A stretch of 64,000 bases of DNA from the NCBI GenBank assembly GCA_963727905.1, contig CAVSIC010000039.1:263663-327662 (forward strand), given 5' to 3'. Position numbers and translations under genes: made by a program. How positions within the stretch are numbered: the first letter of the stretch is position 1; each line of letters begins with the position of its first letter. Shown one piece after another: positions 1-19,570 of the stretch. The notes beneath the pieces were generated by a model. It searched no databases. It was not told the DNA's origin and saw only the letters and a program-made list of their open reading frames with translations. The DNA is from an uncultured Microthrixaceae bacterium. Lineage in GTDB: Bacteria > Actinomycetota > Acidimicrobiia > Acidimicrobiales > VFJN01.

Positions 1-1674
1 CGTGTCGATGAAGGCCCCGCACGCGGCGGGCAGGCGAGACACGGCGCCGGCGACCCAGAGGAGGTGGATGCCGTGGTCCGGGCCGCGCTCGGCCAGCTCG
101 ACGAGCCGGCTGCGCTCGATGGGTGCGTCGTCCTCGACGATGACGATCACTGCCGGCACGGCACCGGCATCGGCGCCCTCGATGCCGGACCTCGTCGCTG
201 CTGCGGCGCGGTGCTCGAGCAGGTCCTCGAGATCGTTGACCAGGCGGAGCAGCGGCGCGGGCGAGGACGCCACGGTGTCTCCGGGCAGCGGGTTGTGGTC
301 GGACGTGACGTGGGGCAGCCACTTGAGCCACTCCCACTCGGCGGTCGTGGACCCGGACAGGGCCGCGCCCACCACCACCTCGCTCGAGCTGTGGAAGGCC
401 GCGAGCTCGACGACGATCGACCGCGCCATGTCCAGGGCCCGGTCGCGAGGACCCGCGACACCGATCGCCCGATGCTCGCGGAACCCGGCGACGGCCGGCA
501 CGGGCTCGACGAACGCGTGCGCATCGCGGACCGCGATCAGCTCGTCCCAGAGGTAGGGCAACGCCTTTCCACGGGACGGCAGCTTGATGGTGCTGCGCGA
601 GGGGAGCCGAGCGGTGCCGAGCCGCACCTCGAGGAACGCGCGCCGGTCGGGTCGCCGGTGCCACAGCAGGTTGTTGCGCTGGCTCACCGCCGACACCGCC
701 TCGGAGACCGCCGGGTACTCGGCGCGCCGGGACGCCACCTCGGCCGCGTTCGCCTCGGACAGCTCCGCGCCGATGGCTCCCAGCGCCTCGCGGAACAACG
801 CGATGGCCTCCTCGAGCGCCTTCTTGCCCAGCACCCGCTGCTCCAGGATGCTCCCGATCATCAGCACCGGGCTCATCGCCAGGAAGAGCACCGAGAAGAG
901 GCTCTTCGTGACGAGGTACATCACCCCACCCATCAGGATGGGGGCCACCACCGCCGCGATGGAGAAGCGAGCCTTGTCCGGCGGTGTCGGGACGTCCGGC
1001 CCCTCCAGCTCTTGACCCTCGTAGACGATGTCGAGGCGGGGCGAGCGGTTGAACTCGACGGTGGGCGCAGTCGCGGCGCCGACGACCCCACCACGACGAA
1101 CGACCCGCACGAGCGACTCGCCCAGCAGGACCGGGTCATCGGGACCGAGGATGGCGCGTGCGACGGGCTCGTCCCCGACGAGGACACCGTTGGACGAACC
1201 CAGGTCGACGATCTCGACGACGTCGGTGACGACGATGCGAGCGTGGCGGGTCGACACCATCGCGTCGTTGAGACGGACCGTGCTCTCGGCGTGCCGGCCG
1301 ATGTAGGAGACACCGGCGGGAAGCGGGAACTCCTTGCCCTTGTCCGGCCCCTCGACCACCACCAGCATCGCCGGGCCGTCAGCAACGTCGAGGTCGTGAC
1401 CCACCGGACGGCGCTTCACCACGCTCACCGTCTGGCCCGATCGGAGCCCGGCGTCGGCGACCGTGGCGTCATGCCGGATGGGCTGCTGCTTCGTGCCGTC
1501 CTGGAGCGCGAGCGTCACCCCCTCGGTCGGGATCTTCAGCGGCGCCAGCGGGTCGCGCTCGCCGATCGCCGCGGCCAGCTCGCCGACGGTGACCGTGGTG
1601 TCGACCGTGACCAGGAGATCCACGGCGGGATGCGGCTGCCCGGGCGGACGGACGAGGGTGAGCTTCAGCCTCAC
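1..1674 (-). CDS. FtsK/SpoIIIE (EccC/EssC-like) membrane ATPase, N-terminal part: ubiquitin-like (YukD/EsaB-like) domain + FHA + TM hairpin; runs off window
   Basis: Not in the ORF track (no stop in window). Manual translation from GTG at 1674 (GTGA overlap with upstream stop): VRLKLTLVRPPG..DATVADAGLRSGQTVSV; FHA IGRH..VSTRHARI..DLGSSNG; FNRSPR; two TM helices; LWHRRP..FLEVRLG; WEWLKWLPH. These are typical EccC/EssC N-terminal motifs. Confidence 0.85.
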   Translation of the reverse strand, partial: MRLKLTLVRPPGQPHPAVDLLVTVDTTVTVGELAAAIGERDPLAPLKIPTEGVTLALQDGTKQQPIRHDATVADAGLRSGQTVSVVKRRPVGHDLDVADGPAMLVVVEGPDKGKEFPLPAGVSYIGRHAESTVRLNDAMVSTRHARIVVTDVVEIVDLGSSNGVLVGDEPVARAILGPDDPVLLGESLVRVVRRGGVVGAATAPTVEFNRSPRLDIVYEGQELEGPDVPTPPDKARFSIAAVVAPILMGGVMYLVTKSLFSVLFLAMSPVLMIGSILEQRVLGKKALEEAIALFREALGAIGAELSEANAAEVASRRAEYPAVSEAVSAVSQRNNLLWHRRPDRRAFLEVRLGTARLPSRSTIKLPSRGKALPYLWDELIAVRDAHAFVEPVPAVAGFREHRAIGVAGPRDRALDMARSIVVELAAFHSSSEVVVGAALSGSTTAEWEWLKWLPHVTSDHNPLPGDTVASSPAPLLRLVNDLEDLLEHRAAAATRSGIEGADAGAVPAVIVIVEDDAPIERSRLVELAERGPDHGIHLLWVAGAVSRLPAACGAFIDT

Positions 1675-4049
1675 GGCGCGGACCTCGGTCGCAGTCGGAT
1701 CTGGGGAAGTCGCGTGACGAAGCCACGGGCACCGGCGAACGAGTCGGCCGGGATCCATCCGCCGATGAGCGACGTCGGGTTGCCGTGGAACCGCACCTTG
1801 CCGAGGAGGCTGCGGCCCGCCACCTGCTCCTTGCGATAGCCGTCGACCTGGGCCCACACCTGGTCCGCGTCGGCATCGCTCGGGTCGCCCGGGCCGAAGA
1901 TGCGCAGGTCCACCGTCGCCGCGAGCGCGGTGAGGGAGGGGTCGCCGATCAGCTGGGCCGCCTCGGCCCGGGTGAGGTCACCCGGTACAGGTCGGCCGGC
2001 GTCCCGGGCGGCGTCGAGGGCCTCGACGAAGCCAGCGGAGATCCGTCGGGCCGGCTGGCCCCGGTGCCGTCGTCGACGGCGGCGCTGGCCCTTGGCGAGC
2101 GCGAGCAGGGCCATCGGAGAAGCCACGGTCACAGCCGCCAGGCCCACCACCTTCGCCAGCATCACCAGCCAACGGATGAGGAACCCGGTCGAGCTCTCCT
2201 CGTCCGGCTCGCCCTTGTCGGTACGGGGGTTGTCGAGGTTGACGATCCGAGGCGGGGGCGTGGTGACCGCCGTCTTCGCCTCCTCGGTCTGGACCTCGTT
2301 GATCAGCACGGGCTGGGGCTCGTCCTGGGTCGTGTTGTCCCGATCGGGCGTCGGGAAGTACGGGACCCACCCGATGCCCTCGAAGTTGATCTCGACCCAG
2401 GCCTCAGCCTCGTCGCCGGTCACCACCCCTGCACCGTCGCTGAGGTGCTTCGGCTCGAACCCGACGACGACGCGCGCCGGCATGCCGAGCATCCGCGCCG
2501 CTACCGCCATCATCGCGGCGTACTGCTCGGCGTTGCCCACCGTCTTGTCCTGGACGCGGGTCTCCAGGAAGTTCCGCAGGTGGGCGAGCGAGTGACCCGG
2601 AGCGATCTTGAAGAGCCCGTCTGGGTCGTAGTACCAGTTGGCTTGGAACAGCTCCTCCAAGGCGAGCGCCCGCTCGGCGCCGTCGGTGCCCACCGCCTCG
2701 ATCTGCGTTCGGATGTCCTGGACCAGCGGATCGGGGAGCGTGTTCGGGCCGAGGCCACCCGGGTCGCCGCCGCGGAACTCCCCCGTGGTCGGCCGCGCAT
2801 CCAGGCTCCGCACGGTGGTCGAGTCGATCACACCCGTGAGCTCGACCCCGTCGCCCGCGACGAGCCCCAATGGGGTGGCGACGATGTCCGTCGCCCGGTT
2901 GAACCGGTAGGACTTCTGGAGCTCCTCGGCACGCGGCCCGGTGAAGCGCACGGAGGTCGCCGCCCCCACGGTGGGCACCCACACGCCCGTCGGGAGCGAA
3001 CCGGCGTCCTGGTCGGCCACGATCCTCACCTGCACGCGCTCACCCTCGGTGGGCGCATCGGGGATGACGGGGCCGACGTGCCGGAACACGCCAGCGGACC
3101 CCAAGGAGCGAGCATCCACCGGCGGGGCGACCGACCAGACGATCCCGTCGAAGTAGTCCATGACGGCGACACGGATCAGGCCCTTCTCCGGCAGCCCCGA
3201 CACCTCGAACAGGGGCCGATCCTTCACCGGCTCGATCAGGAACTTGCGATAGCCGACCAGGGGACTGGCGTAGTCACGCGCGTCGAACGGTGGGATGACG
3301 TCGTCCCGGAGGATCACGCGATCCGAGGAGCTGGGGGGCGCGCCCGGGAGGTGCGGGGCGACGTTCGTCGACAGTACGAGCACGGCCCCGAGCATCGCCA
3401 CCGCCGCCATCGGACGTCCCGCTCCGGTGCCACCGACGATCTGCGTCTGGCGCAGCTCGACCCGAGCGCTCACCCACGCGATCCCGACGGCAGCGAACAC
3501 GCCCCCCTGGAGCAGGAGGTTGGCGGGGGTCTTGATGCCCAGGAGCACGCTCGCGACGAGCACCACCATCGGCGGGAGCACGCACCACGGCACCGCGCTC
3601 CGCCGCCGGGCCAGGAGCATCGACAGGAACGCTCCGGCGAACGCGCACAGGTACGGCACGACGAGGACGTTGCCCTCGGTTCCCGCCGGCGCCGAGCTGG
3701 TGAGGAGGCGGGCCCACCCGTTCGCGGCGCCGTCCGCCAGGTCCGAGAAGGTGCTCGGTCCGGGGAGGATGCCGAGGAGCGCGGAGTCCGGCGTCGCGAT
3801 CCCACCCAGCACCACGAGGGTGACGATCGCGATCGCGGCCGCGACCACTGCGGGGAAGCGGTAGCGAATGACCGCCGCGGCTGCGCCGATGCCGATCGCG
3901 GCCGCGACGACACCGACCACGAGGAACTGCCAGCCACCGAACGATGTTCGGAAGCCGTACGCGCCAAGACCGACCAGCGCGACGGTGAATCCGGCGTCGG
4001 CGAGACCACGCCGGTCGAACGGGTTGGGGGCTTCGATCGCTGCCGCCAT
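1671..4049 (-). CDS. Membrane-bound transglutaminase-like (TgpA/DUF3488-type) protein, catalytic triad degenerate
   Basis: Multi-TM N-terminus; GNAEQYAAMMAVAARMLGMPARVVVGF...AEAWVEINFEGIGWVPYFPTP matches the transglutaminase-core pattern; lies next to DUF58 and MoxR. Confidence 0.88.
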   Translation of the reverse strand: MAAAIEAPNPFDRRGLADAGFTVALVGLGAYGFRTSFGGWQFLVVGVVAAAIGIGAAAAVIRYRFPAVVAAAIAIVTLVVLGGIATPDSALLGILPGPSTFSDLADGAANGWARLLTSSAPAGTEGNVLVVPYLCAFAGAFLSMLLARRRSAVPWCVLPPMVVLVASVLLGIKTPANLLLQGGVFAAVGIAWVSARVELRQTQIVGGTGAGRPMAAVAMLGAVLVLSTNVAPHLPGAPPSSSDRVILRDDVIPPFDARDYASPLVGYRKFLIEPVKDRPLFEVSGLPEKGLIRVAVMDYFDGIVWSVAPPVDARSLGSAGVFRHVGPVIPDAPTEGERVQVRIVADQDAGSLPTGVWVPTVGAATSVRFTGPRAEELQKSYRFNRATDIVATPLGLVAGDGVELTGVIDSTTVRSLDARPTTGEFRGGDPGGLGPNTLPDPLVQDIRTQIEAVGTDGAERALALEELFQANWYYDPDGLFKIAPGHSLAHLRNFLETRVQDKTVGNAEQYAAMMAVAARMLGMPARVVVGFEPKHLSDGAGVVTGDEAEAWVEINFEGIGWVPYFPTPDRDNTTQDEPQPVLINEVQTEEAKTAVTTPPPRIVNLDNPRTDKGEPDEESSTGFLIRWLVMLAKVVGLAAVTVASPMALLALAKGQRRRRRRHRGQPARRISAGFVEALDAARDAGRPVPGDLTRAEAAQLIGDPSLTALAATVDLRIFGPGDPSDADADQVWAQVDGYRKEQVAGRSLLGKVRFHGNPTSLIGGWIPADSFAGARGFVTRLPQIRLRPRSAP

Positions 4050-5350
4050 CAGCCGACCGCCACCGCCCCGAGCCGTGCCGCAAGGTCACGCGGCTCACGA
4101 ATGGTCAGGAGCTGCAGGTCGCGCACCGTCCGGACCTCCGGCTCGGCGACCGGGTCGATCCGCACCACCAGGACGCGGAGGTGCGACGGGAGCCACGACG
4201 AGGCCGAGCGGAGGTCAGCGATGCCGGCCCGGCTCCCAGTGACCAACACCGCGATGCTCGCCGCGGCCAGCGGGTGACGAGCGCGGCGGGCGACGGTCTC
4301 GATGCCGTCGCCGTCGGCCTCCAGCTCGACCGCGCTCAGGGCATCGAGCAGCTGCGTGCGGCCACGGCCCGCCACTGCGGTCGCGCCGTGGATCGAAGTG
4401 ACCTGCTGGCCGAGCTGGAGGGAGCTGACCCCGAGCGACCCGATCGTGGAGACGGCGACCTCGAACTCGTCCTCGTTCGCGTAGTCCGCCGCCCGTGTCG
4501 ACAGGATCAGCCCGAGATGGGCCCGCCGGGTGTCGACGTACTGGCGGACCATGAGCTTCCCGGTGCGCGCGGATGTGCGCCAGTGGATGCTGCGACGGTC
4601 GTCCCCCGGTACGTACTCGCGCAAGGTGTGAAAGGCGATGTCAGCGGGCGACAGGTCGTTCGTCGTCATGCCCTCGAGGTCCCGCATCCACCCCGCCGCG
4701 GCCCCGGGCAGCAGGTCGATCTTCGGGTGGACGATGAGGTCCATCGCGTCGCACCACACGACCTCCCGCCGCGCCAGGCCGAGCGGGTCGCCGCGCACCG
4801 AGCTCACGGGGCCCACGGGGATCACGGCTCGACGGTTGGTCGGGATGACGAACGGCTCGACGAACTCCGCGCCGTGGCCCAGGGTCGGCGGCGACAGCCG
4901 GGCCAGGCCGTCCCTTCCCACCGGCACCTCGAGCACGACGCCGAGCACCTGGCGGGCGCCCGTGTTGCGCACCCGCAGGCGCGCGATCGCCGGCTCTCCG
5001 ACGGTGACGCGCTGGGGATCGAGCTCGAGCTCCACCTCGAGCGCTGAGCGACCGAGGGTGAACAGCAGCGCGGCCACCACCATCAGCAGGCAGGCCGTCG
5101 CGAAGGTGACGAGCTCCTGCCATCCGAACTTCGACCCCACCATCCACCCCAAGACACCGAGGCCGAGCACCGCCCAGCCCGGCTCCGCGATCCGCTCGGT
5201 CACGGGACGGCTCCGCTCCCGCGCCGCCGCGCCGAACCGCGCGAGCACCGTCGTCACCTGCTGCCGGCGCCACACCGAGGTGACGGTGCGCCGGACGCTG
5301 CTGACGCGCGTGCCGAGGCGGCCGCGACGGGTGGGAACTGAGGCGCTCAC
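4049..5350 (-). CDS. DUF58 domain protein
   Basis: RGDPLGL, FHTLREYVPGDDRRSIHWRTSARTGKLMVRQY motif; GTG start at 5350 overlaps the MoxR stop. Confidence 0.9.
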   Translation of the reverse strand: MSASVPTRRGRLGTRVSSVRRTVTSVWRRQQVTTVLARFGAAARERSRPVTERIAEPGWAVLGLGVLGWMVGSKFGWQELVTFATACLLMVVAALLFTLGRSALEVELELDPQRVTVGEPAIARLRVRNTGARQVLGVVLEVPVGRDGLARLSPPTLGHGAEFVEPFVIPTNRRAVIPVGPVSSVRGDPLGLARREVVWCDAMDLIVHPKIDLLPGAAAGWMRDLEGMTTNDLSPADIAFHTLREYVPGDDRRSIHWRTSARTGKLMVRQYVDTRRAHLGLILSTRAADYANEDEFEVAVSTIGSLGVSSLQLGQQVTSIHGATAVAGRGRTQLLDALSAVELEADGDGIETVARRARHPLAAASIAVLVTGSRAGIADLRSASSWLPSHLRVLVVRIDPVAEPEVRTVRDLQLLTIREPRDLAARLGAVAVG

Positions 5351-6315
5351 GTGCCGGCGCGCTCCACCGGGGCCGGGACATCGGCGACCACGCGGGCGAG
5401 CACCTGGCTCGGGTTCAGGCCGTTGAACTCCGCGTCCGGCGTGAGGATCAGGCGGTGGCCGAACACGGGCCCGACGAGCGCCTTGACGTCGTCCGGCGCC
5501 ACGAACGTCCGGCCGGTCGATGCCGCCCACGTCTTGGCCGCCCGCACCAGTGCGAGGGCGCCGCGGACGCTCACGCCCAGCATCACGCCGTCAGCGCGAC
5601 GGGTCTCCTCCGCGAGCAGGCTCACGTAGGCGAGGACGGCGGGGTCGCAGTGCACTGTCGAGGCGAGGCCGGCCATCTCCGTCACGGTGCTGGCCGGGAC
5701 CAGCGGCTTGACCATGACCGAGCGGTCACGGGTGCCGGACTCCGCGAGCAGGCGGACCGTCGTGTTGTGGTCCGGGTAGCCGAGGCTGGTCCGCATCAGG
5801 AACCGGTCGAGCTGGGCCTCGGGGAGGCGGTACGTCCCGGCCTGCTCGATCGGGTTCTGGGTGGCGAGCACCATGAAGGGCGGCCCGACCTTGTGCGGGA
5901 TGCCGTCGACGGTGATCTGGCCCTCCTCCATCACCTCGAGCAGCGCCGACTGCGTCTTGGGGGAGGCCCGGTTGATCTCGTCCGCCAACACGATCGTGGC
6001 GAAGATCGGCCCGGGCTTGAAGTCGAAGTCCCCGGTCTGCTGGTTGTAGATCGACACCCCGATGACGTCGGTGGGCAGCAGGTCCGGCGTGAACTGGATG
6101 CGGCTCGAGGAGCCCTGCACCGTGTTCGAGATCGCCTTCGCCAACGACGTCTTGCCGGTGCCCGGAGCATCCTCCAGCAGCAGGTGACCCTCGGACAGCA
6201 GGCACGTGAGCGCGAGCCGCACCACCGCGGTCTTGCCCACCACCGCCTGTTCGACGTTGGCCACGAGGCTGTTGAAGGTCTGGGAGAACCAGCCCGCCTG
6301 TTCTGAAGTGATCAT
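5347..6315 (-). CDS. moxR: MoxR-family AAA+ ATPase
   Basis: GHLLLEDAPGTGKT, RIQFTPDLLPTD, LADEINRASPKTQSALLE, ATQNPIEQAGTYRLPEAQLDRF. Confidence 0.95.
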   Translation of the reverse strand: MITSEQAGWFSQTFNSLVANVEQAVVGKTAVVRLALTCLLSEGHLLLEDAPGTGKTSLAKAISNTVQGSSSRIQFTPDLLPTDVIGVSIYNQQTGDFDFKPGPIFATIVLADEINRASPKTQSALLEVMEEGQITVDGIPHKVGPPFMVLATQNPIEQAGTYRLPEAQLDRFLMRTSLGYPDHNTTVRLLAESGTRDRSVMVKPLVPASTVTEMAGLASTVHCDPAVLAYVSLLAEETRRADGVMLGVSVRGALALVRAAKTWAASTGRTFVAPDDVKALVGPVFGHRLILTPDAEFNGLNPSQVLARVVADVPAPVERAGT

Positions 6316-6367: not shown

Positions 6368-6790
6368 TCACCACTCGAGGTGGTTCGACTCGATACCGCC
6401 GACGACGGCCCACACGTGCGAACCGGGGAAACCGAAGGCGTACGCGGTGACGTTCTCGCCGTCCCGGACCTCGACCACCCCGGTGAGGCCCTGGCCCCAG
6501 TCCGTCGTGGTCTCGCCGCACTCGTCGCAGTGCAGTTGCGCCGAGTGCGGGCCCCTTCCGAACCCGCTCAGCTCCACAACGATCGCCCCACACTCGGTGG
6601 AGGTGCACCCTGCGGGGTTCAGTTGGCTACCTCGCGACACTGCGACCGAGCGCTCCGCAGCCGCGGGGCCTGTCGACGAGGTCGCCGAGGATCCTCGATC
6701 CTCAGATCCAGAGTCCTCACTGCACGCCGCACCAAGAACCAGGATCGCAGCGAGACCGACCGCCACGACCCGACGAGTCATCGCCGCCAT
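6368..6790 (-). CDS. Lipoprotein carrying a paralogue of the adhesin C-terminal 4-Cys tip domain
   Basis: Signal peptide with lipobox-like LGAAC; mature domain aligns by eye to the last ~90 aa of the upstream adhesin (NPxGC..C..GF..CxxCG..WG..VWAVVxGxESNH). Confidence 0.75.
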   Translation of the reverse strand: MAAMTRRVVAVGLAAILVLGAACSEDSGSEDRGSSATSSTGPAAAERSVAVSRGSQLNPAGCTSTECGAIVVELSGFGRGPHSAQLHCDECGETTTDWGQGLTGVVEVRDGENVTAYAFGFPGSHVWAVVGGIESNHLEW

Positions 6791-6792
6791 CG

Positions 6793-9700
6793 TCACCAGC
6801 CTCCTTGGTGGTTGGACTCGACGCCGTTGACCACTGCCCAAACCTCTCCACCTTCGCCGTAGGCGTAGCTGGTCGCATTGGCGCCGTCGTGCACCGTGAT
6901 GGCTCCTGTGAAGCTCCCGCCCCAGGTCCGGTTGTTGCTGCCGCAGGTCGAGCAGTACAAGACCGCTGAGTAGTTCCCAGCAGGGAACCCTTCGAGCGTG
7001 ACATTGATCCGCTCGCAGCCGCTGTTGCAGCCCTGCGGGTTGTAGGCCTCACCGATCGACACGATGACCCTTGGCGGCGTCGCTCCCGTGGTCCCCGAGC
7101 CAGAGCCCGGATTCGCACTCTGGCTTCCTGGCGCGTTCACCGCCCAGACGTACAAGCTGTGGGCCTGGCTCGCGCCGAAGCTCTGCGAGTACGACGTCTG
7201 ACCGGCACCGACCGAGAAGGTGCCGCCGCCGTCGACCCGAAGGGTGTAGCCGGTGATGGCTCGGCCGTTCGCGTTCGGTGCGGTCCAACTCCAGGTGAGG
7301 GTGTAGTCCCCCTGCGGACGCTGTCCGGGAGAGGACACGCTCGGCGTACCGGGCGGACCGTAGGGCGTCGCTGAGGGCGAGGTGCTTGCCGTGCCGCACT
7401 TCTGAGAGGTCGGGTTGTTGTTGCAAGCGGCGACGCTGAACGTGTACGCCGTGCCGTTGTTCAGGCCGGTCACGACCAGCGTGACCGTGCCCGAAGCGGC
7501 GCCGTTCATGGTCCGAGCGGACAGGCCGCTGGGCGTCACCCGGTAGCTGCTGATGGCATTGCCGTTCGGATCCGGTGCCGTGAACGTGAGCGTGACCTGG
7601 GTGTTCTGCTCCTGGGTGGTGATGGCGCCGACCTGCATCGGTGGGCCGGACGCGATGACCGCGGCCGACTTCGCCGTCGGGAGTGAGCGCCCGCGAGCGT
7701 TCTGGGCCACGACCTCGAACGTGTAGCCGGTGCCGTTGTCGAGGTTCTGCACCGTCGTGCTGTGGACGTCCGGGCCGAAGCTCTGCTCGCCGCCGTCCTT
7801 GGATCCGCCCTTGTACCGCTGCAGGTGGTACTGGGTCACGGGCGAGCCGTTGCTGTCGGCGGTCGGCCACTGCACATCGATCTGCTTGTCACCCGCAGTA
7901 GCGGACGGAGGCGTTCCGCCGAACAGTGGGACCCCATAGGGGCGCATCGACTGGGACGTCACCGCATCGGAGTCGCCGGCCTCGTTGTGGGCCGTCATCC
8001 GGACCTGGTAGTCGGTCCCGTTGGTCAGGCCGGTGAACGTGGCCTGGTGCGTGCCACCGGTCGGCGCCTGGGTGGCCTGGCCCCCGTGGGCCGGGATCAG
8101 CGTGAGGTCGTAGCGCTGGATCGCAGTGCCCTCGGAGGTGGTGGCGTCGGTCCAGGTGACGATCAGCTCCTTGTCGTTGATCGTCGGGGCCCCGAACGAC
8201 GGGGGATCCGGGATCTTGTCGGGGCGCAGGTCGGCACTCGCGGCGCTCCAGTCGCCCTCGATCTCATCGCCGCCGAACAGCGCCACCGCCCGCACCTCGA
8301 AGTGGTACGTGGTGCCGTTCTTGAGGTTGACGATCGTGCACGTGGCGCTGTCGCAGCGCTGGGAGACGCCGTTGGCCTGATCGCGCACCTCGTACCGGCT
8401 GATCGGCGCTCCGCGAGGCGTCGGGGCGGACCACCGCAGGTCGACCTGCTTGCTCCCGGCCTCCCCGGTGGGCGTCCCGGGCTTGTCGGGCTTGCCGACG
8501 ATGTTCACCGTGACGTTGCCCGTCACCTGGTGCGACTCCTCACCGGAGTCGTCGGTCACCCGGTAGGTGAACTGCGTGGTGCCGGAGAAGTTGCCCTCTT
8601 GATCGTCCGGGGGCGTGAAGACCAGCTTCTCCCCAGACGGGGACACCTGACCCTCGCCGCTCCGCGGTTGCTCGAAGTCGAGCAGCTTCAGGCCGTCGCC
8701 GACGTCGTTCCCGAGGATGTCCAGCTCCTTCCGGCCAGTCTTGCGGAGCACGTCGAAGGTGTCGTTGGTGACGGTGGGGGGCGGCGTCGATGTCGGTTGC
8801 AGCACCACGCGCACCTGGGCCTCCGCGGACAGCGGCGGTTCGCCGTTGTCCGTGACCTTGATCGTGAGCGGGGTGACCTGGCCCTTCGTCACCGAGTAGG
8901 CGTCCTTCTCGGCGTGGACCTTCAGGCGCGAGCCCTGCAGGTCGGGCTGCACCTTCTCGTGACCGCCCCCGAGGAGCTCGAACCGGAACTCGTCGCCTGC
9001 GTCGGCATCCGTGACGCTCCGGGCGAGATCGTCGATGGTCGCGTCGCCGCCCGCGGGCACGGTGACCTCGAGGCCGCTCAACGACGGCGGATGGTTCTCC
9101 TTGCGTTCGATCGTGATCGTGACCGCGCCCTCGGCCGTCTTCGACGGATCGTCCTTGAGGTGGACCTTGTAGCTGAAGCCGTCGACCGTGGCGTCGCCGT
9201 CCTTCGGCGCCGTGTAGAGGGCCTTGCCCCCGTCGTTCTCGACCGTGCCGGCCGTGGGGAGCTTCGTGAAGCTGTCGAGCTCGACGGCGCCCTTCGGCAG
9301 GTCGTTGGCCACCACGTCGATCGGGATGACCTGGCCGGGCTCCACGGTGAGGGCGTCGGGGGTGGTGCGGAGGGCCTCACGGGACGCGAGCGGCACCACC
9401 ACGAACGCCGACGCGCGGTTCTCGTCCTTGTCCACCAGTGTGTACCGGAGCTGTACCGGGGCCTCGGGCATCTCGAAGACGAGCCGCATGGTGCGGGCGC
9501 TCCACGTCGCCTTCACCGGCGAGGTCGGATCGACGACGACGTGGAGCGCCCCGACGAGCCCGTCGGGATCGGCGTCGTTGTCGAGGATCGGAACGCTGAG
9601 CTGGTCACCTGGCTCGGCCGGTGCCTGCAGGTCGTCGACCGCCACCGGCGGCGCGCCGGCCGTCCCGGGAGGCACGATGTCGACCACCAGGGTCGACTCG

Positions 9701-12700
9701 GCCGTCTGCCCGACGTCGTCGCGAATCCGGTAGCGGACGACGACCTTGTCGCCTGGCTTCGCGGAGTCCGACACCCGGACGAGGATGACACCGGTCCCCG
9801 GCCGGACCTCACGAACCTCACGGACGCCTTCGCGGAGCTCCGGAGCGTCGACCAGCTCGATGTCGTCGCCGTCGGGGTCGTTGTCGTTGGCCACCACGTT
9901 GGCCTCGAGGGTCTTGCCCGGGACCGCGGTGAGGTGGTCGGTGACGGCCACCGGCGGGCTGTTGGTGTTGCTCGGCACCACGGCGATCCGGACGATGCCG
10001 CGGCCCTCCAGGCCCTCGGGGTCGCGGACCGTGTAGGCGAACTCGTCGGAGCCCACCGTGGAGGGCACGTACCAGAGGGTGTTGGGCGCCACCTGGATGT
10101 CCTCGCCCTCGCGCAGCCCCCGTTCGTAGGTCAGGTGCTCACGCCGCGCATCGAGCACGAACCCCCTGTCGTCGATCGCAGGGAGCGTCCCGTGCTGCGG
10201 GGCGCTGGCGACGCCGACGAGCGACACCACGTCGCCGTCCGGATCCGCCCCCACCACCGGGATCTGCACCGGGATCGGCCGCCCCACCGACGTCCGCACC
10301 TCAAGGACCGGCGGCAGCGGTGCCTGGTTGTCGCGCGCCACCACGCTGACGTGGACCTCGGCCCCGCCGCGGTTCCCGCGGGTGTCGATCGTGGTGTAGC
10401 CGACGTCGAAGCTGACCGGCGTCTCCGGGGCGACGATGCGGACGACGTCGCCCTGGACGAAGGCCGTGCCCTCCGGGCACGGGTCACCCTGGCGGGTCCG
10501 GCACGGGAGATCCCCGACCGCGCCCCCGCGGCGGCGTCCGCGCTCGGCGGGGCGAGGATCAGCGGCCCGCCCTCGGGGTCGAGGTCGTTGTCGAGCACCC
10601 GAACCGCGGCCACCCGACCGGGGCGGATCACGAGCTCATCGTCGGCGGCGATGGGCGGTTGGTCCTGGGCCCGGTCGATCCCTCGCACCACGACCGCACC
10701 GAGCACCGGCGCCGTCGTGCCATCGGTGACGTCGTACCGGAACACCAGCGGTTCGTCGCGCGGGATGGCGCGCCGGGCGGTGACCCGGAGGTACTGCCGC
10801 TTGAGGACCTCGACCTCGACGCCCGCCGCCCGTAGGACCTCGCGCGAGCCGGGGTCGACCCCCGTCACGGCAAGCACGTCGCCGTCAGGATCGGAGTCGT
10901 TGGAGAGCACCGGGATCACGACCGGCACGTCGACGGCGACCGCCGCGTTGTCGCGCGCCGCGGTCGGGGATCGACCCTCACCGGCCGACACGATCAACCG
11001 GATCGTCCCCTCCCCAGAGGCGCCAGTGTCCTCGTCGACGGCGGTGTACTTCACGCTGTAGGTCCCCGGCTGCGCGGCGACGAACCGCACCTCCTCGTTC
11101 GACCGGTCGCGGACCTGGAGGGAGCCGGCGTTCGAGCCCTCGGCCGTCACGGAGGCGACGCGAAGCGTCCCGGACGGCGACAGGTCGTTGCCCAGCGGTC
11201 GCACGGTGAGCTGCTGGTCCGCCTGGCCCAATGCGACGTCGTCGCGAGCGACGACCACGGCCTTGTCCTCGACCGTGAGGATGAGCTGACCCGTGGCCTC
11301 GGCACCGAGGTCATCGACGATCTTGTAGTTGACGGTCTTGGGGCCGAGGTCGAGCCCCGCCCGGACCGTGATGATGCCGTCGGGCCGGTGCTGCGGGGTC
11401 GAGAGGGTGCCGTCGTCCGTGGTCGCGTCGACCAGGGAGAGCCCGTCGCCGTCCTCGTCCTGGTCGTTGGCGAGCACGTTCACGACCGCCGTGCCGTTCT
11501 TCGAGATGGTGATCCGGTCCTCGACGGCCCGCGGCACCCGGTTCTCGCCATCGAGCTTCAGGATCGTGACGGTGACCTCTCCCGTCGCTGTCCGCTCGGT
11601 CCCGTCGCTCACGGTGTACGTGAAGCTGCGGGTCGGCGGCCCGGACGGGCCGGGGTCGAACTCGATGCTCTGGCCGTTGAGCCCGACGGAGGCCGTGCCG
11701 GCGGAGGGCTGGCTCACCTCCCTGACGTAGATCGCGCCGGGCGCGGAGGCCAGCGCCGGGATGCTCCGCGGTCGGCCCTCGCGGGCGGAGATGTTGATGG
11801 GGTTGGCCTTCAGGTCCTTGTTGGAGTCCGCCGTGGTCGTGCGCTTCTCCCCCTCCTCGGGGTTCTCCGCCTGCTCCTCCGGTCGGACGGTCAGTGCGTC
11901 GATCCAGGCCTTGTCCACCGACTTCGGCGGCTTGCTGTCCATGATGAGCGCGGCACCATTGCCCAGGTCGTTGAGGGTGATCCGGTCGTGGTTGACCCGG
12001 AACTTGAGCCGGCCCCCGCTACCGAACGAGCTCGGCACCGGGTCTTGCCGGTCGCACGCACCGACGGCCCGGCCGGGCTTCTCCCACGCGCCGTAGCTAC
12101 AGCCCTTGAGCCGCACCGGCTCGATGGGCGACTTCGCCTCGTCTTGCACGTAGGCCCAGTCGGCGTCCCCACCACCGAGCGGCACGTTCACCAGCCCGCC
12201 GTCGGTCGCCACGGCCACCGTGTCGGCGTCGCCCGCGGGCTGCTGGAGGATCGCGTCCTCGCCGAAGGCCCCGAGGTCGACGCTCCGACCCCCCACGACG
12301 AGCAAGCGGCGGGTGGTCCGGTCGAGCACCACCGACCTCGACCCCGCGGCCGTGATGCTGAGCTCGGCGGCGGGATCCACGTCGATCTTGCGATCGCTGC
12401 GCTTCGACCCGTCCGCGTCGTAGGTCCGCACGTGGTCTCCATCGACGACGTGCACGGTCCCGTCCGTGCCCACCGCCATCCGGGCTGCCTCGGACACCTC
12501 GCCCGCGGGCTTGCCCTCGAATCCACCGGACTGGAAGCCATTGGCGGGGACGACGTGCAGGGCTCGTGACTCCGGGTCGAGGAGCGCGAGCGTGCCTCCG
12601 CCGAGACCGATGTCGACGCCCTCGCCACTGGGGAGGGCGGCCTTGACCGGCGGGCGGGACGGATCAGCGACGTCGACGCTCGTGAGACTGCCGGCGCCTC

Positions 12701-12977
12701 GAACGAACACGGTTCGGCCCGCCTGCAGGATGTCGGGGCCCTGCTCGACGTCGAGCTTGGTGTCGACCTGCCCGACCTCCATGTTGAGACGACCGACGCT
12801 CGAGGTCGTCGGCCCGCCCGTGGCCGAGAGCGTGGTCTTGGTGATCCAGATGCCCGCGTCGTTCAGGTCGACCTTGGTCTGGCGGTAGCCGTCCGAGGTC
12901 AGGACGACGATCGCGCCGGCGACCACGGCGAAGGCGATGACGACACATGAGAGCGCTCGCCGCGCACCGCCACTCAT
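6793..12977 (-). CDS. Giant surface adhesin (N-terminal anchor, propeller-like region, tandem Ig-like Big_9/cadherin-like repeats, 5 FN3 domains, Cys-rich tip); split by a frameshift near 10525
   Basis: ORF 10131..13037 (start ATG 12977) and ORF 6793..10344 join across a G5 run at 10523-10527; repeated PxAxDD..VLxNDxDPDGD units; FN3 patterns (WSAP..YEV..LKNGTTYHFEVRA). Confidence 0.85.
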
Positions 12978-13064: not shown

Positions 13065-14087
13065 TCAGTCTCGCACAAGGCGGGCCCAGCGATCACCGAA
13101 TCGCACCGTGCAGCCAGGGGTGACCGGGTACCGCCGGCCGGGGTGCACGTTGGTCGATCTCCCGTCCGGCAGCTCGAGCGACGTGCCGTTGGTCGAGGAG
13201 AGGTCCTCGAGCCACACGCCATCCGGCTCGACCAGGACGCGGAAGTGGCTCTTGGAGATCGTCCGCTCCCGGTCGTCCACCGGGATCGGGGTCCCCAGGG
13301 ACGGATCGGGGTGCCGCCCCACGACGATGGAGGCCGCGACCCGGTGGCGATCACCGGTGTCGAGCTCGAGCACGACCCGGGTCGTGGGCGCCGGGGCGGC
13401 GGGACCGCGCCGCGCCGCCCGGTAGGTCTGGTCGTCTACGGGGGTGACCGGCCCATCGTCGACCCGCTGCCTCGTGCCGTCATCCACCCGCTGCCGGGTT
13501 CCCTCGTCCACCGGCGGCGGGAGGTGACGGAGAGCCGGCCGGGTCGGACCGTCGACCACGAGAGGTGGTGATGCAACCGCACCGGGTGCCCCAGGGCTGG
13601 CGGAGGTCGCCCGGTGCCAGCGGCTGGCCCCCAGATCCGACCGCAGGCGGGCCATCGCGGCAGCCGGGACCGTGCCGACGACGGTGACCCGGGCGCCGGT
13701 GGGCGACTCCTCGATCGACACGTAGCACTCCTCTGTCCGGCGGAACAGCAGCGACGGGAGCGCAACCCCGAGGGTGACCACCGAAGCCAGACCCCCGCCC
13801 ACCGTCACCTGAAGCGGCCGCACGGCGCGTGCGTACCGGTAGCGCCCAGGGCCCACGGTCGCCTGGGCGCAGCCCGCGTCAACCAGGACCCCTGCGACGC
13901 GCGACTCCGTCTCCGACGCCGCCGGGCCTCGCACGGTGAACGTCTCCCGCACCCGGATGCCGCGCTCCCGACGGGCCCGCTCCCGCAAGTCGTCGGCTCG
14001 GCCTCGGAGCGCCGTTACCCCCGACCGCGCTGAGGCCAGAGCGCTCCGCCCGCGCTCCGTCGTCCCTGCCGCCCGCACTGCGCTCAT
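13065..14087 (-). CDS. Membrane-associated FHA domain protein
   Basis: C-terminal FHA VGRHP..ISKSH..DLSSTNG; hydrophobic hairpin in the N-terminal part; ATG overlaps the kinase stop. Confidence 0.8.
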   Translation of the reverse strand: MSAVRAAGTTERGRSALASARSGVTALRGRADDLRERARRERGIRVRETFTVRGPAASETESRVAGVLVDAGCAQATVGPGRYRYARAVRPLQVTVGGGLASVVTLGVALPSLLFRRTEECYVSIEESPTGARVTVVGTVPAAAMARLRSDLGASRWHRATSASPGAPGAVASPPLVVDGPTRPALRHLPPPVDEGTRQRVDDGTRQRVDDGPVTPVDDQTYRAARRGPAAPAPTTRVVLELDTGDRHRVAASIVVGRHPDPSLGTPIPVDDRERTISKSHFRVLVEPDGVWLEDLSSTNGTSLELPDGRSTNVHPGRRYPVTPGCTVRFGDRWARLVRD

Positions 14088-15631
14088 CAGCCCTCCCCGC
14101 TCAGACACCGTCGCGCTGGCGACGGACGTAGGTACCCCTCCAGGAACGCCTCCACCTCGGCGCACTGGAGCGACTCGTCGTGGACGACCAGCTCGCGGTC
14201 CCCGGTGACCTCCTCGTGCTCGCCGACATCGTCGGTGTAGGTCACGTGGTATTGGGTCCCTGCCGGGTTGGCCGAATCCGCCCAGGCCACCCGGACGACG
14301 GTCCCCTCCCGGGTGAGGGTCACGTCGGAGACCGGCTCGAGCACTGCGCTCAGCTGGTTCGTGCCCGTCGTGGACGTCGTGTCGTCACCCGTCGGGTCCT
14401 CGCTGCCCCCCAGGATCGAGGCGGCGGCGACGGCGACGACCGCCGCGATCACGAGCACTCCGGCAACGATGCGGGTCTTCGACGATGTCGAGGACGGAGC
14501 GACGGTCGCCTCGGCCGGCTCGGGCGCCTGGGCGCGTCGCCGGCCCGCCGTCTGGGTCTGGAGCTCGAGCCCGTCCGGGAGGTGGGCCCCTCGGGTGCCG
14601 GTGTGGGCGTCGGGCACGTCGAAGCGCTCGACGCTTGGCTCGAACGGGGCCGCCGAGGGCCGGGGCTGGCTCGTCGACCGATCCGGGGACACGACCTGGA
14701 TCTGGGCACGCGTGCCGTCGGGATCGTCCGTCTGACGGGGCTTGGCGTCGCCCTCGGTCCCGATCGTGCCGTCGAAGAAGTCCGTCGGGCGGTAGCCGAG
14801 GCTGCGCTCCACCTCCTGGATCGCCCGGGCCAGCGCCGCGGCTGACTGGGGGCGCGACCGCGGCTGGCGGGCGAGCGCGTACTGGAGGAGCGCCTCGAGG
14901 CCGTCGGGCACGCCGGGCTTGCCCGTGGACGGCGGGGTGGACGCCCGCATCCGGCTGAGGAGGCCCTCCTGGCTGTTGTCCCCGCCTCGAACCTCGTAGG
15001 GGCTCCGGCCGGCGACCAGCGCGTACAGGGTGGCGCCCAGGGAGTACAGGTCGGAGGTCTCGTCACCGGGGGCGTCCGAGAACAGCACCTCCGGCGCCGC
15101 GTACGGCACGGACACGCCGGCGCCCTCGTCGAGCTCCGACCCGCGACGCTCCCCCGCGATGCCGAAGTCGATCAGCACGGGCTCCTTGCTGGCCCGCACG
15201 AGGATGTTCGCCGGCTTGATGTCCCGATGGAGGATCCCGGAACGGTGGGCGGCGGCGACCGCTCCGCACACCTTGACGCCGATCCGGAGCGCCTCGTCGA
15301 CAGGCAGGCCGTTCGGACGGCAGCGCTGGCCCAGGTGCGGCGGCGGGCAGTACTCCATCACCATGTAGGCGCGGCCGTCGTCGCTCACGCTCGCCGCCGA
15401 GATGCGGACGATGTTCGGGTGCTCCCCGAGACCGGCAAGCCGGTTGGCCTCGTTGATGAAGTCCTGTTCGAGCGTGGCGCTGCGCTGGCGCAGGACCTTC
15501 ACCGCCACGCGCTGGCGGGGGAACTCCTGCTCGTAGAGGTACACGTCGGCGAAGCCGCCGCTGGCGAGGAACTCCTGGAACGCCAGGTTCGGCAGCCGAG
15601 GCGGCGGGGCGGGATCGCGGAGACCAGGCAC
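14087..15631 (-). CDS. Hanks-type Ser/Thr protein kinase, transmembrane
   Basis: ASGGFADVY, VAVK, HRDIKPANIL, DFG, YAAPE; TM helix followed by a small extracellular domain. Confidence 0.93.
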   Translation of the reverse strand: MPGLRDPAPPPRLPNLAFQEFLASGGFADVYLYEQEFPRQRVAVKVLRQRSATLEQDFINEANRLAGLGEHPNIVRISAASVSDDGRAYMVMEYCPPPHLGQRCRPNGLPVDEALRIGVKVCGAVAAAHRSGILHRDIKPANILVRASKEPVLIDFGIAGERRGSELDEGAGVSVPYAAPEVLFSDAPGDETSDLYSLGATLYALVAGRSPYEVRGGDNSQEGLLSRMRASTPPSTGKPGVPDGLEALLQYALARQPRSRPQSAAALARAIQEVERSLGYRPTDFFDGTIGTEGDAKPRQTDDPDGTRAQIQVVSPDRSTSQPRPSAAPFEPSVERFDVPDAHTGTRGAHLPDGLELQTQTAGRRRAQAPEPAEATVAPSSTSSKTRIVAGVLVIAAVVAVAAASILGGSEDPTGDDTTSTTGTNQLSAVLEPVSDVTLTREGTVVRVAWADSANPAGTQYHVTYTDDVGEHEEVTGDRELVVHDESLQCAEVEAFLEGYLRPSPARRCLSGEG

Positions 15632-15633
15632 GG

Positions 15634-17010
15634 TCAGCCCACCGGCGGGGCGAGATCGAAGGTGACGGAGCCGCCCAGCACCACGCGCACGCCCGGGGCG
15701 ATCACGTGCGGCTCGTGGGCCCGGAGCCGGATCGGGTCCTCGCCGGGGGCCTCCACCACGGTCCCGTTGGTCGAACCGAGGTCGGTGACCGCGATCTGCC
15801 AGTCCTCAACGGTCAGCTCGACGTGCGAGCGGGACACCGACGACTCGGGGTCGTCCACGGCCACCAGCCCGAAGTCGGAGGTGCGATCGGTGGCGGACGG
15901 GCGGCGGCCGATCAACAGCGAGCGGTCGAGCTCGACCGACTTCCCGCTGTCGAAGCGGAGGACGCTGAGCACCGGCCGCGGCGCCCACACCACCGACCGG
16001 TCGACGATGGCAGACCCGCACACCCGGCACGCAGCCGCGGCGGGGTGGCTCAGGTGCCCGAGCGGGCACGACACCGCCTGCACCTGCGGTCCGCTCGCCG
16101 GCTCGTCCGGTGCCCCGGAGGCGGTCGGCGCAGGCGCGTCAGGCGCCGGGGAAGACCACGCTGGCGGAGGCTCGGATACGGGAGCGACGGGAGCGCTCGG
16201 GGCGGCGGGGAGCGACGGGCCCCCCACGAGCGGCGGGGGCGTCCAGGTCCCGGGCGCGGACGGAGGCGGATCAGCGAACCCGCTCGAAGGCGCCGGCGTC
16301 GGAGCGGGCGGCGAGGCCTCCCAAGCCGGCTCGGGCACCGCCACCGAGCCGAAGTCGTCCTCCGGCTCGACGGCCGCGGTCTCCCGCACGGCCGCCGCCT
16401 CCACGCCGCGGTGCTGCGTGCCCTCGACCAGGTGGGCGAAGTCGAACTCGCCGGTCGGGGGGCCGTCGAGCCGTGGAGGCGGGTCCCACGACGGAACCGG
16501 CGCGGGCGCCGGCGCCACCCGCGCGGCAGGGACCGCCGGCACCTCGAAGCTCGGCTCCGGGTCGCGGAAGGCCTGCGTCCCGAGGTGCTCCGCGGCCGCA
16601 GCGACCGGCTCGGGTCCGAGGAAGAACGTGATCCGGACGTCTCCGCCGGGGCCTGGGCACCCCAGCTCGACCTCGGAGGGCGCGTCCACGACGAGCTCGC
16701 GCAACGTGGGGCCCGTGCCCTCCAGCCGATGGCTCTGCCCGTCCGTCGCCGTGATCGAGGCCCAGGCGCCGCCGCGAGCCAGGGCTCGCACGCCGTCCGG
16801 ATCCACGCGCACGTAGCCAGAGAACGCCGCGTCACCGCAGCCGAGCGCGAGCTCCGCGATGGACGGGCCGGCAGGCCCCCCGGTGCGCACGGCGCGCCCG
16901 AGCGCGCTGGCGACGGCCGCGTCGTGCCCGGCGCCCAGGAGCACGGCCGCATCCGGGCCCACGAGGGTCACCGGTCCATCGGCCATCCGCCCGTGCGGCA
17001 GCCCGCTCAT
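15634..17010 (-). CDS. FHA domain protein with Zn-ribbon and Pro-rich linker
   Basis: CPLGH..CRVCG; FHA IGRRP..VSRSH..DLGSTNG. Confidence 0.85.
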   Translation of the reverse strand: MSGLPHGRMADGPVTLVGPDAAVLLGAGHDAAVASALGRAVRTGGPAGPSIAELALGCGDAAFSGYVRVDPDGVRALARGGAWASITATDGQSHRLEGTGPTLRELVVDAPSEVELGCPGPGGDVRITFFLGPEPVAAAAEHLGTQAFRDPEPSFEVPAVPAARVAPAPAPVPSWDPPPRLDGPPTGEFDFAHLVEGTQHRGVEAAAVRETAAVEPEDDFGSVAVPEPAWEASPPAPTPAPSSGFADPPPSAPGTWTPPPLVGGPSLPAAPSAPVAPVSEPPPAWSSPAPDAPAPTASGAPDEPASGPQVQAVSCPLGHLSHPAAAACRVCGSAIVDRSVVWAPRPVLSVLRFDSGKSVELDRSLLIGRRPSATDRTSDFGLVAVDDPESSVSRSHVELTVEDWQIAVTDLGSTNGTVVEAPGEDPIRLRAHEPHVIAPGVRVVLGGSVTFDLAPPVG

Positions 17011-17073: not shown

Positions 17074-17838
17074 TCAGCCGTCATCGTCGGCCGGCTCGCC
17101 GTCGAGGAGCGCGAGGTCCTCGTGGGTGACGAGCCGGACGGCGATGGCGTACTCGACGAGGCGGCCGCGCCGGTCCGACGCAAGCCGGTCCGGCCCGCCG
17201 TGGAGCCCTCGAACGCCCGCCTTCGTCAGCTTCTGGCACACGTTGTCGAGCTTGCGGTTGAACTTCGTGAGGGCCCAGCCGAGACGGGCGGCGGCCTCGG
17301 CCGACGTCGGCACGTGGGCTCGGCCGCTCGAGTGCGGCAGGAGGGCCGGCTCGGCGAGGGCGACCACGAGGAGCTTCTGCTCGGTCGTCAGCATCACCCG
17401 CCCGAGCGTCGTGTCGCCGGCCTCCGAGGCGGCGTCGATGCCCGGGCTGAACGGGGCCTGCTCGAGGTGGAGCACCAGCTCGTAGGCGGTGGGCCCGGCG
17501 GTGAACCGCACGTGCATCACCTCGAAGATGATCGGCAGGTGCGCGCCGGGCGCGAGCCAGCCCTGGAACAGCCCGGTGCCTTCCGACGTGGTGGCGGAGA
17601 GCTGCGTCCCAAGGTTGGCGAGCCACCACATGCCGTCGTGGTGCCGGACCTCGAGGAACCGCCGGTGGAGGTACGGATTGTCGTCGACGACCAGATCCGC
17701 GTCGCGGCCGATGGTGAACGGCTCGTCCCGCGACAGCTCGAACCACTCGCCGCAGAACTCGAGGCGGAGGGACGACCGGACCTCGACCGGGAGGTCGTCG
17801 CCCACGATCACCTCGTCCAGGTCGGTGTCGTCACTCAT
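17074..17838 (-). CDS. Degenerate FHA + C-terminal HTH-like protein (putative regulator)
   Basis: Starts MSDDTDL overlapping the PP2C stop; FTIGRDADLVVDDNPYLHRRF (FHA-like); PTSAEAAARLGWALTKFNRKLDNVCQKL (HTH-like). Confidence 0.7.
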   Translation of the reverse strand: MSDDTDLDEVIVGDDLPVEVRSSLRLEFCGEWFELSRDEPFTIGRDADLVVDDNPYLHRRFLEVRHHDGMWWLANLGTQLSATTSEGTGLFQGWLAPGAHLPIIFEVMHVRFTAGPTAYELVLHLEQAPFSPGIDAASEAGDTTLGRVMLTTEQKLLVVALAEPALLPHSSGRAHVPTSAEAAARLGWALTKFNRKLDNVCQKLTKAGVRGLHGGPDRLASDRRGRLVEYAIAVRLVTHEDLALLDGEPADDDG

Positions 17839-18653
17839 CCGTCGCCCTCCCGGGGATTGGTGTCCTCGTCCGCCGCGCCGATCGGGGCGATGCCTCGCGG
17901 GTTCGTGTCCTCGGCCGCGCCATCGAGGTCGGCCGAGCCCTCGATCGTGGCGACGACCACCGAGACGTTGTCGTGAGCACCGGCCTCGAGCGCGAGCGCG
18001 ACCAGCGCGTCCGCCTTCTCCTGCGGAGATCCGTCGGAGGCGAGGACGCCGCGGAGGACGTCGTCGCGCAGCTCGTCGGTGAGCCCGTCGGAGCACATGA
18101 GGTACGTGGTGCCCGTGGCGGGGTCGTCGGTCCACAGGTCCACCTCGAGCGGGCCCTCCATGCCGAGCCCGCGCGTCACCACGTTGCGCGACGGGTGGGA
18201 GAACGCGTCGTCGGCGGTGATCTCCCCGTCGCGCACCATCTCGGCGACCAGCGAGTGGTCGACGGTCACCTGGGTGAGGTCGGACCCCTTGGCGCGATAG
18301 GTCCGGGAGTCGCCGACGTTGAAGATCATCACGACGTCCTGCCCGTGCTGGCACCCGAGGACCAGCCCCGTGACCGTGGTGCCCATCCCCTCCCTGCCGG
18401 ACCCCGGCTCGGCGTCCTGGAGGATGTCCGCGTTGGCACGGCGCACCGCGTCGACCACCTCGTCGAGGCACGGCGTCCGCTCGATGCCCTCCAGGGCGCG
18501 CACCGCGAGCGCGCTTGCGACCTCGCCGGCCGCATGGCCACCCATGCCGTCCGCCACTGCGAACACCACGGGACCTGCCAGCACCGCGTCCTGGTTCGAG
18601 CGTCGGACGCACCCCACGTGGGTCGCCGAGCCCCATCGGACCTCGATCGCCAA
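17835..18653 (-). CDS. PP2C-family Ser/Thr phosphatase
   Basis: RRSNQD, VADGMGGH, GMGTT, NVGDSR, CSDGL, GAHDNVS. Confidence 0.95.
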   Translation of the reverse strand: MAIEVRWGSATHVGCVRRSNQDAVLAGPVVFAVADGMGGHAAGEVASALAVRALEGIERTPCLDEVVDAVRRANADILQDAEPGSGREGMGTTVTGLVLGCQHGQDVVMIFNVGDSRTYRAKGSDLTQVTVDHSLVAEMVRDGEITADDAFSHPSRNVVTRGLGMEGPLEVDLWTDDPATGTTYLMCSDGLTDELRDDVLRGVLASDGSPQEKADALVALALEAGAHDNVSVVVATIEGSADLDGAAEDTNPRGIAPIGAADEDTNPREGDG

Positions 18654-19469: not shown

Positions 19470-19570
19470 CGAACGGCACCTCCGCGAAAAGCGCAAGGTC
19501 GGCCCCGTACGGGACCTCCTACTGGCGTCCAGCGGGAACCGCCCGCCGGCAGCACCAAGGAGATCCACTC

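Follow-up and report, generated by a model that had tools for sequence, protein, structure and literature searches.

What is the role of a small lipoprotein whose gene lies between the gene of a giant exported protein and a moxR gene, and which carries a diverged copy of the giant protein's own C-terminal domain (the "tip")? The locus belongs to a 64,000-nucleotide stretch of DNA, hereafter the window. The original prediction had described the giant protein as an adhesin and had proposed that the lipoprotein could form a self-recognition pair with it or be a decoy or a spare variable-tip cassette; this interpretation is partly supported. Here we show, for the C-terminal module of the giant protein, EsrA, that it has been swapped among close relatives. 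At some loci, an additional gene encodes an exported, diverged copy of the resident module, either without the stalk or including a portion of it.

The Esr operon and its giant protein

The genes surrounding the small lipoprotein gene (Table 1) are not an orphan adhesin locus but the PFNA/Esr operon, an epibiont-sensing pathway (EsrA-G) linked to type VII secretion. The Pfam matches followed the order PP2C, FHA, kinase, FHA, the Big_9/cadherin/Fn3 giant protein, MoxR, DUF58, transglutaminase-like protein and FHA-EccC. Thus, the esrA, moxR, DUF58, transglutaminase-like, kinase, PP2C and FHA genes that mark an Esr/PFNA locus were clustered, and the FHA-EccC fusion that marks Esx linkage was directly adjacent. 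Beyond the window, the Esr-Esx block (L174, G000:C39:245000-264500) continued with WXG100-like genes and more FHA-type and kinase genes and ended beside dnaK-grpE-dnaJ-hspR (names read from the sequence). Upstream of the operon, at 19466-20245 on the plus strand, the window encoded a secreted acidic protein of no clear family; its repeats contain Cys, and a sortase-like motif precedes its C-terminal membrane segment. A promoter scan found none, and the one terminator-like site was at chance level. The operon was patchy, being present in 12 of the 400 genomes in an order draw, and no close MoxR, above about 54%, was found in 29 genomes of the same genus. Genomes with Agromyces-like EsrA ends share no rank below the phylum with the host organism, which is therefore probably outside class Actinomycetes and likely belongs to Acidimicrobiia. 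This suggests that Esr-Esx loci occur patchily outside class Actinomycetes.

Table 1. Features of the locus, with positions in the window
Feature	Positions	Strand	Remarks
FHA-EccC/EssC type VII secretion ATPase, 5' part, runs beyond the window	1..1674	-	two WXG100-like genes next
esrD, membrane transglutaminase-like protein without catalytic Cys, His, Asp	1671..4049	-	
esrC, DUF58 protein (approximate start)	4049..5350	-	Pfam
esrB, MoxR AAA+ ATPase	5347..6315	-	Pfam AAA_3, E 4e-61
small lipoprotein gene, 140 aa (P0001)	6368..6790	-	signal peptide (lipobox-type Cys23), then Ser/Thr linker and copied EsrA C-terminal domain
copied domain, 92 aa, four Cys	6371..6646	-	predicted Ig-like beta-sandwich; no Pfam or NCBIfam family
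EsrA C-terminal domain (tip)	6793..7071	-	shares family and CxxC subtype with the lipoprotein domain
esrA/fn3	6793..12977	-	from export signal and probable beta-propeller through Big_9/cadherin and Fn3 repeats to the tip; two frames, about 2060 codons together
FHA-domain protein (EsrG-type)	13065..14165	-	Pfam
esrE/pkb2, Ser/Thr kinase with transmembrane segment	14087..15631	-	Pfam
esrG-type protein: N-terminal domain, Pro-rich linker, C-terminal FHA	15634..17010	-	
conserved hypothetical protein of the cluster	17081..17746	-	55% identity to G178 counterpart
esrF, PP2C phosphatase	17835..18653	-	Pfam

The giant protein had been described as a stalk protein of about 2000 aa. The gene is not a single open frame here, since a single frameshift near 10500-10560 splits esrA. 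Both halves were collinear, end to end, with one 2050-aa protein of genome G178. An assembly indel error is probably the likelier cause because the EccC gene has two further frameshifts and gyrA, on the same contig (G000:C39:348252-350645), is broken over three frames, which points to indel errors in the assembly, even though rpoB and two dnaE genes are intact. In this incomplete genome, rpoC and secA were not found. Among the reads, one 248-base contig, perhaps from the same sample, matched the tip exactly, and no listed piece spanned the frameshift or the lipoprotein gene. Pfam matched Big_9, cadherin and fn3 domains in EsrA, and the hydrophobic N-terminus was judged by eye. A profile of the N-terminal region built from 15 sequences gave weak matches to hydrazine synthase beta (E 0.007), Atg18 and Pizza2, which we take to be propellers, and no Pfam propeller family matched this region. 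For the giant protein, EsrA, a sensor filament, is a better name than adhesin.

The Esr pathway is described in a preprint by Wang et al. (PMC13622651), and the following is taken from the available part of it. Schaalia needs EsrA1 to respond to a Saccharibacterium, and one strain evades EsrA1 sensing. EsrA1 is shed when EsrD1 is missing, Esr2 controls the export of Esx effectors, and 40% of Esr loci are linked to Esx, with FHA-EccC fusions. How Esr senses an epibiont is named as an open question, and the N-terminal propeller of EsrA is modelled as the sensor. The preprint thus puts the propeller at the sensing end, whereas we would place the C-terminus at the distal end of the filament.

A diverged copy of the EsrA tip

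The stop codon of the giant gene is followed by two bases and then by ATG at 6790, which is the most likely start of the small gene rather than TTG at 6841. The N-terminus of the small protein matched the lipoprotein signal pattern, for which we used a regular expression that we take to be the PROSITE lipobox pattern, and a Ser/Thr-rich linker came next. NCBIfam gave a weak, sub-threshold lipoprotein match in the same place (E 0.047). With a signal peptide that ends in a lipobox Cys, the small protein is classed as a lipoprotein and is predicted to be lipidated.

Local alignment of the tip (6796-7071, minus strand) with the domain of the small protein (6371-6646, minus strand) gave 45 identities over 89 positions. 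The score was 220, compared to 31 +/- 6 and a maximum of 67 for 1000 shuffles, and chance similarity was therefore rejected. All four cysteines were aligned, and the two domains had the CxxC and the long loop of their subtype in common. The proposal that the lipoprotein is a diverged copy of the tip, with about 45 identities over about 89 positions and four Cys kept, was thus borne out. At the DNA level, 182 of 290 bases were identical (63%), the longest exact shared run was 9 bases, and no homology to the EsrA stalk was found in the copy. The dN/dS between tip and copy was moderate, at 0.61. The source genome, which is 72% complete, contained the domain in two copies only; a domain search in 40 relatives gave 0 matches, and a two-sequence pattern scan of a set of genome contigs gave none that was confirmed.

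The segment had also been described as less GC3-biased than its neighbours. The GC3 of the small gene was indeed lower (112/140, p 4e-6) than that of the operon (0.922), but the drop sets in earlier, within the final repeats of the stalk, about 500 bases upstream of the tip (149/176 in the stalk just before the tip). In the tip itself GC3 was 76/92 (p 0.002), and the drop is weakest in the copied domain, where it is not significant (80/92, p 0.055). The deficit of the small gene sits mostly in the signal and linker (32/48).

A full HMMER search found 43 relatives of the domain, mostly as C-terminal or tandem modules of secreted proteins (CHAP, trypsin, M12 and S8 hydrolases, and Fn3 proteins), with others on kinases. 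Three other forms (P0003, P0017 and P0027) are stand-alone and lipoprotein-like. Such placement on secreted hydrolases and kinases is the usual pattern of binding modules. Downstream of its Esx genes, G178 encodes a second Ser/Thr kinase (L179, about 13300-15710) in which a domain of this family follows a Thr-rich linker at the C-terminal end. Folding from two sequences gave a pLDDT of 42, and a model from 27 sequences gave a pLDDT of 80. The latter resembled Ig/Fn3 sandwiches, with a best Z of 7.3 and an rmsd of 2.7 over 79 residues. Unrelated folds commonly reach this level; the domain is predicted to be a disulfide-type Ig-like sandwich. Foldseek gave no match at E <= 0.001 and VIA-align none at Z >= 8. 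The PDB sequence matches of alignment A2 arose from its Fn3 part, word-index protein searches returned the window's own proteins only or mostly Fn3 matches, and an atlas search with the window domain gave, as a weak lead, unnamed clusters at 0.91 with low recognition. A toxin tip was rejected, based on the lack of any family match, the predicted Ig-like fold, the presence of the family on hydrolases and kinases, and the lack of a toxin or immunity gene.

Tip exchange and recurrence of exported copies

By sequence comparison, the last ~100 residues of EsrA are a swappable module, a predicted four-cysteine Ig-like domain here and an SH3-like domain elsewhere. From N- to C-terminus, the identity between L035 and L038 was 96, 95, 34 and 28%, where the first value refers to the N-terminal 350 aa and the fourth to the final 100, and between L045 and L051 it was 89, 89, 32 and 27%. 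Six Oerskovia loci carried three tip types, with 77-83% identity between types in the N-terminal part and 24-30% in the last 100 residues. The EsrA proteins of the window genome (G000) and G178 were identical at 23 of the last 93 residues and at 49 of the preceding 93. G178 and G756 have the two closest operons, and a single clade of the G000, G178 and G756 tips was rejected (p-AU 0.005). Invariant tips among strains would have spoken against the original prediction; instead, close relatives differ greatly in their tips but share a conserved remainder. No tip swap was seen in Agromyces, Cryobacterium and L101-L105, where the N-terminus was about as divergent as the tip or more (some values were lowered by trimming). 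The EsrA of Janibacter (L059:6542-7981, L058:1751-3253), encoded directly before moxR, consists of an N-terminal domain and a Lys/Ser/Thr tail without stalk or tip, and the tip is therefore not essential to every Esr.

We surveyed loci with MoxR at >= 54% identity by inspecting the gap before moxR, leaving out duplicates (L016, L017), non-Esr loci (L142, L150), stalkless loci (L058, L059, L109) and loci with too little upstream DNA (L057, L096, L107, L191). A small copy between esrA and moxR was found at 4 of 39 informative same-class loci (G000, G178, G160, G156), and among 62 other loci copies were found in L115 and L125, sister strains from one metagenome, and in L155. These counts are lower bounds: where the upstream sequence extends to only 1.5 kb, a paralog of about 480 aa or longer could go unseen. 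In addition, the denominator is inflated by near-identical loci. An exported tip copy is thus uncommon but recurrent, and a one-off duplication, absent from homologous loci, was rejected.

Compared with 104 tips, the copy scored best with its own tip in G000 (232, next 144), G160 (291, next 104), G156 (222, next 73) and L125. The matched copies were all just 41-53% identical to their own tips, which suits diversified binders. The copies of G000, G160 and G156 were mutually unrelated (scores 30-36). The G160 domain is SH3-like (atlas 0.94; the related tip L162 matches SH3_3 at E 1e-4, below the cut-off), and the G156 domain is probably SH3-like, as judged by eye only. Because these two use different, SH3-like domains, the tip-copy arrangement would have arisen at least four times, and the pairing is present across lineages with different end domains. 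Tip and copy are thus matched in G000, G160, G156 and L115/L125, which points to co-variation across unrelated folds, but G178 has a mismatched pair: its lipoprotein was identical to its own tip at 18 of 75 positions and ranked it 12th of 104, and a clade of the two was rejected (p-AU 0.019).

The rarity of the copy, at 4 of 39 loci in an operon that is itself patchy, would fit a simple by-product: esrA would have a recombination hot spot at its 3' end, where duplications and swaps leave partial copies that persist with no role in Esr. The moderate dN/dS of tip versus copy also agrees with this explanation. However, every copy had its own export signal (with an atypical lipobox in G160 and none in the L115/L125 copy), and each of the independent copies has an intact signal peptide and linker, whether gained or already present at the outset. 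In addition, the cysteines and core residues are kept, G000 and G178 have the lipoprotein in the same position at a MoxR dS of about 1.1, and the stand-alone copies of L115 and L125 showed purifying selection, with a dN/dS of 0.078 at dS 0.53 (one sister pair, not the window gene). We consider a by-product improbable.

The three metagenome loci L115, L125 and L155 hold arrays. In L125 (L125:1-7950), esrA is followed by two secreted stalk-plus-tip paralogs and one secreted tip-only gene; the first paralog is identical to the esrA stalk at 986 of 1228 bases, with a 44-base exact run. At L155:2-3829, an array of secreted stalk-plus-tip paralogs lies behind esrA, one with a different tip and one without a tip. 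In phylogenetic analysis, the G000 tip and its lipoprotein grouped inside a clade with P0003 and P0017, with the tip nested among three stand-alone lipoproteins (supports 100/95, 99/92 and 91/91; 94/86, 95/86 and 80/76 in a second analysis). This suggests that the G000 tip came from a lipoprotein, but monophyly of the lipoproteins was not rejected (p-AU 0.115) and this direction stays a candidate. In G156, a duplicate of the moxR start (first 20 codons, 49 of 60 bases identical) lies before and in frame with the lipoprotein gene (L176:13113-13732). We infer that it is a recombination scar and that a cassette was exchanged there after tip and copy had diverged, because the moxR duplicate is much less diverged than they are. 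The swaps, the nesting of the G000 tip, the stalk-bearing paralogs and this scar would all fit a spare tip cassette, a downstream gene kept mainly as a recombination donor into esrA in the manner of the orphan C-terminal modules of polymorphic toxins. Such a cassette would nevertheless fit the stalk-bearing arrays only and suits the window locus poorly, where the copy has its own signal, no stalk homology, 63% DNA identity and no exact run beyond 9 bases. A silent cassette is unlikely because the copies have signal peptides of their own and, in the single case measured, purifying selection acts at the protein level, and as a general explanation we regard the spare cassette as rather unlikely.

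Candidate roles and comparison with known systems

At the position of the EsrD catalytic cysteine, the 58 loci that were matched had Gly (23), Ala (16), Asp (11), Ser (1) or Cys (7). The seven loci with Cys were non-Esr MoxR loci, and in all Esr-type loci aligned EsrD lacked the catalytic cysteine. An active transglutaminase was rejected for EsrD, as the Cys-His-Asp triad is missing. This suggests that the usual cross-linking chemistry is not open to EsrD, and it would conflict with the covalent anchoring of EsrA proposed in the available part of the Esr preprint (PMC13622651). Inactive versions of the transglutaminase-like fold serve as peptide binders, as described in the accessible part of PMC3495828, and since EsrD lacks the catalytic Cys, EsrA is probably retained non-covalently. 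This leaves room for like-with-like docking, in which the lipoprotein would bind the matching EsrA C-terminal domain and either tether the C-terminal end of EsrA to its own membrane, with the propeller outward, or mark kin cells, whose contact would then not set off Esx. According to the same portion of the preprint (PMC13622651), EsrA lacks a sortase motif and is shed when EsrD is absent. With EsrD lacking its catalytic residues, a non-covalent tether would be needed. The match of copy to own tip in four lineages, across unrelated folds, and the CxxC and long loop common to tip and lipoprotein point in the same direction. Docking is difficult to reconcile with the mismatched pair in G178, the lack of a lipobox in the L115/L125 copies and the lack of a small copy at 35 of 39 same-class loci, and recent duplication accounts for the tip-copy match without any binding. 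We judge docking to be unlikely.

The reading that we rank first, and favour tentatively, is that the lipoprotein is an auxiliary binder or decoy for the ligand class of the tip that also feeds tip renewal over evolutionary time. The EsrA C-terminal module would face outward and bind a ligand on the surface of a neighbouring cell or epibiont. The copy would bind the same ligand class with shifted specificity, near the membrane or, where the signal is not of the lipoprotein type, free, and would act as a second receptor or decoy that widens or buffers recognition. As lineages evolve, domains may move between stand-alone and tip position, and the copies would thereby supply new tips. The tip swaps, the recurrence of the copy, its match to the own tip across unrelated folds, the placement as a binding module, the dN/dS of 0.078 and the need for EsrA1 in sensing all argue for an auxiliary binder or decoy. 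Several observations argue against it: the Esr preprint, in its available part, models the N-terminal propeller, among the most diverse parts, as the sensing end (PMC13622651), no swap was seen in Agromyces, Cryobacterium and L101-L105, Janibacter EsrA has neither stalk nor tip, most loci have no copy, and purifying selection was measured in one sister pair only and not for the window gene. That the lipoprotein is a working accessory part of the Esr threat-sensing system is plausible, if a little short of probable. A broader proposal is more doubtful, namely that the exchangeable C-terminal domain of EsrA, and not only the propeller, sets which epibiont or neighbour Esr detects. In some lineages this domain would then have given rise to a small set of variant, exported binders, with a single lipoprotein in the window and as many as three additional genes in L125. 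These would serve as co-receptors or decoys and would also supply new tips, amounting to a diversified surface-recognition repertoire against Patescibacteria. No Saccharibacteria host of this class turned up in a literature search.

No description of tip exchange or of a tip-copy gene was found in the literature searched, which did not extend to subscription journals and the supplementary PDF of the preprint. In its available part, the main text of the Esr preprint contains neither "lipoprotein" nor "Acidimicrob", and Table S3 has no Acidimicrob or SH3 rows in the portion examined, where the first 30 of 54 "lipo" places were unrelated (PMC13622651). The window locus resembles Esr as described there in its EsrA-type filament, MoxR, DUF58, transglutaminase-like protein, kinase, PP2C and FHA proteins, and in the adjacent Esx genes with FHA fused to EccC (PMC13622651). 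It differs in having, between esrA and esrB, an additional gene whose exported product copies the EsrA C-terminal domain, in an EsrD without the triad, and in a host that seems to lie outside class Actinomycetes, to which the available part of the preprint confines Esr (PMC13622651). A swapped domain of about 90 residues that several lineages export separately makes the question of Esr sensing directly testable, and the small natural tip copies are ready-made reagents for finding ligands.

The PFNA cluster of Bifidobacterium has pkb2, fn3, aaa-atp and duf58 as well as tgm in the same order and requires a C-terminal FN3 region for TNF-alpha binding, according to the parts available of PMC8430577, PMC6803598 and PMC10688814; these genes are EsrE-A-B-C-D in the portion seen of Table S3 of PMC13622651. 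In the window, by contrast, the host is from soil, an extra FHA gene and the small lipoprotein gene interrupt the five-gene block, Esx is linked and the C-terminal domain is another one. The window locus also bears some resemblance to polymorphic toxin systems. In these systems (CdiA, Rhs, MafB), orphan C-terminal cassettes accompany a long conserved body with an exchangeable C-terminus. Likewise, Esr loci combine a conserved long body and an exchangeable C-terminus with related modules downstream, in arrays at some loci. Orphan cassettes have body homology for recombination and lack an export signal, neither of which applies to the window copy, although L125 and L155 have the stalk homology. 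The window tip also appears to be a binding-type domain with no toxin or immunity gene, and the modules downstream have signal peptides and appear to be expressed. SH3b and similar modules are C-terminal cell-surface binding modules. The window domain occupies the same position on secreted hydrolases but differs in being an unnamed, predicted disulfide-type Ig-like sandwich, and SH3-like domains replace it as both EsrA tip and lipoprotein in G160 and probably in G156.
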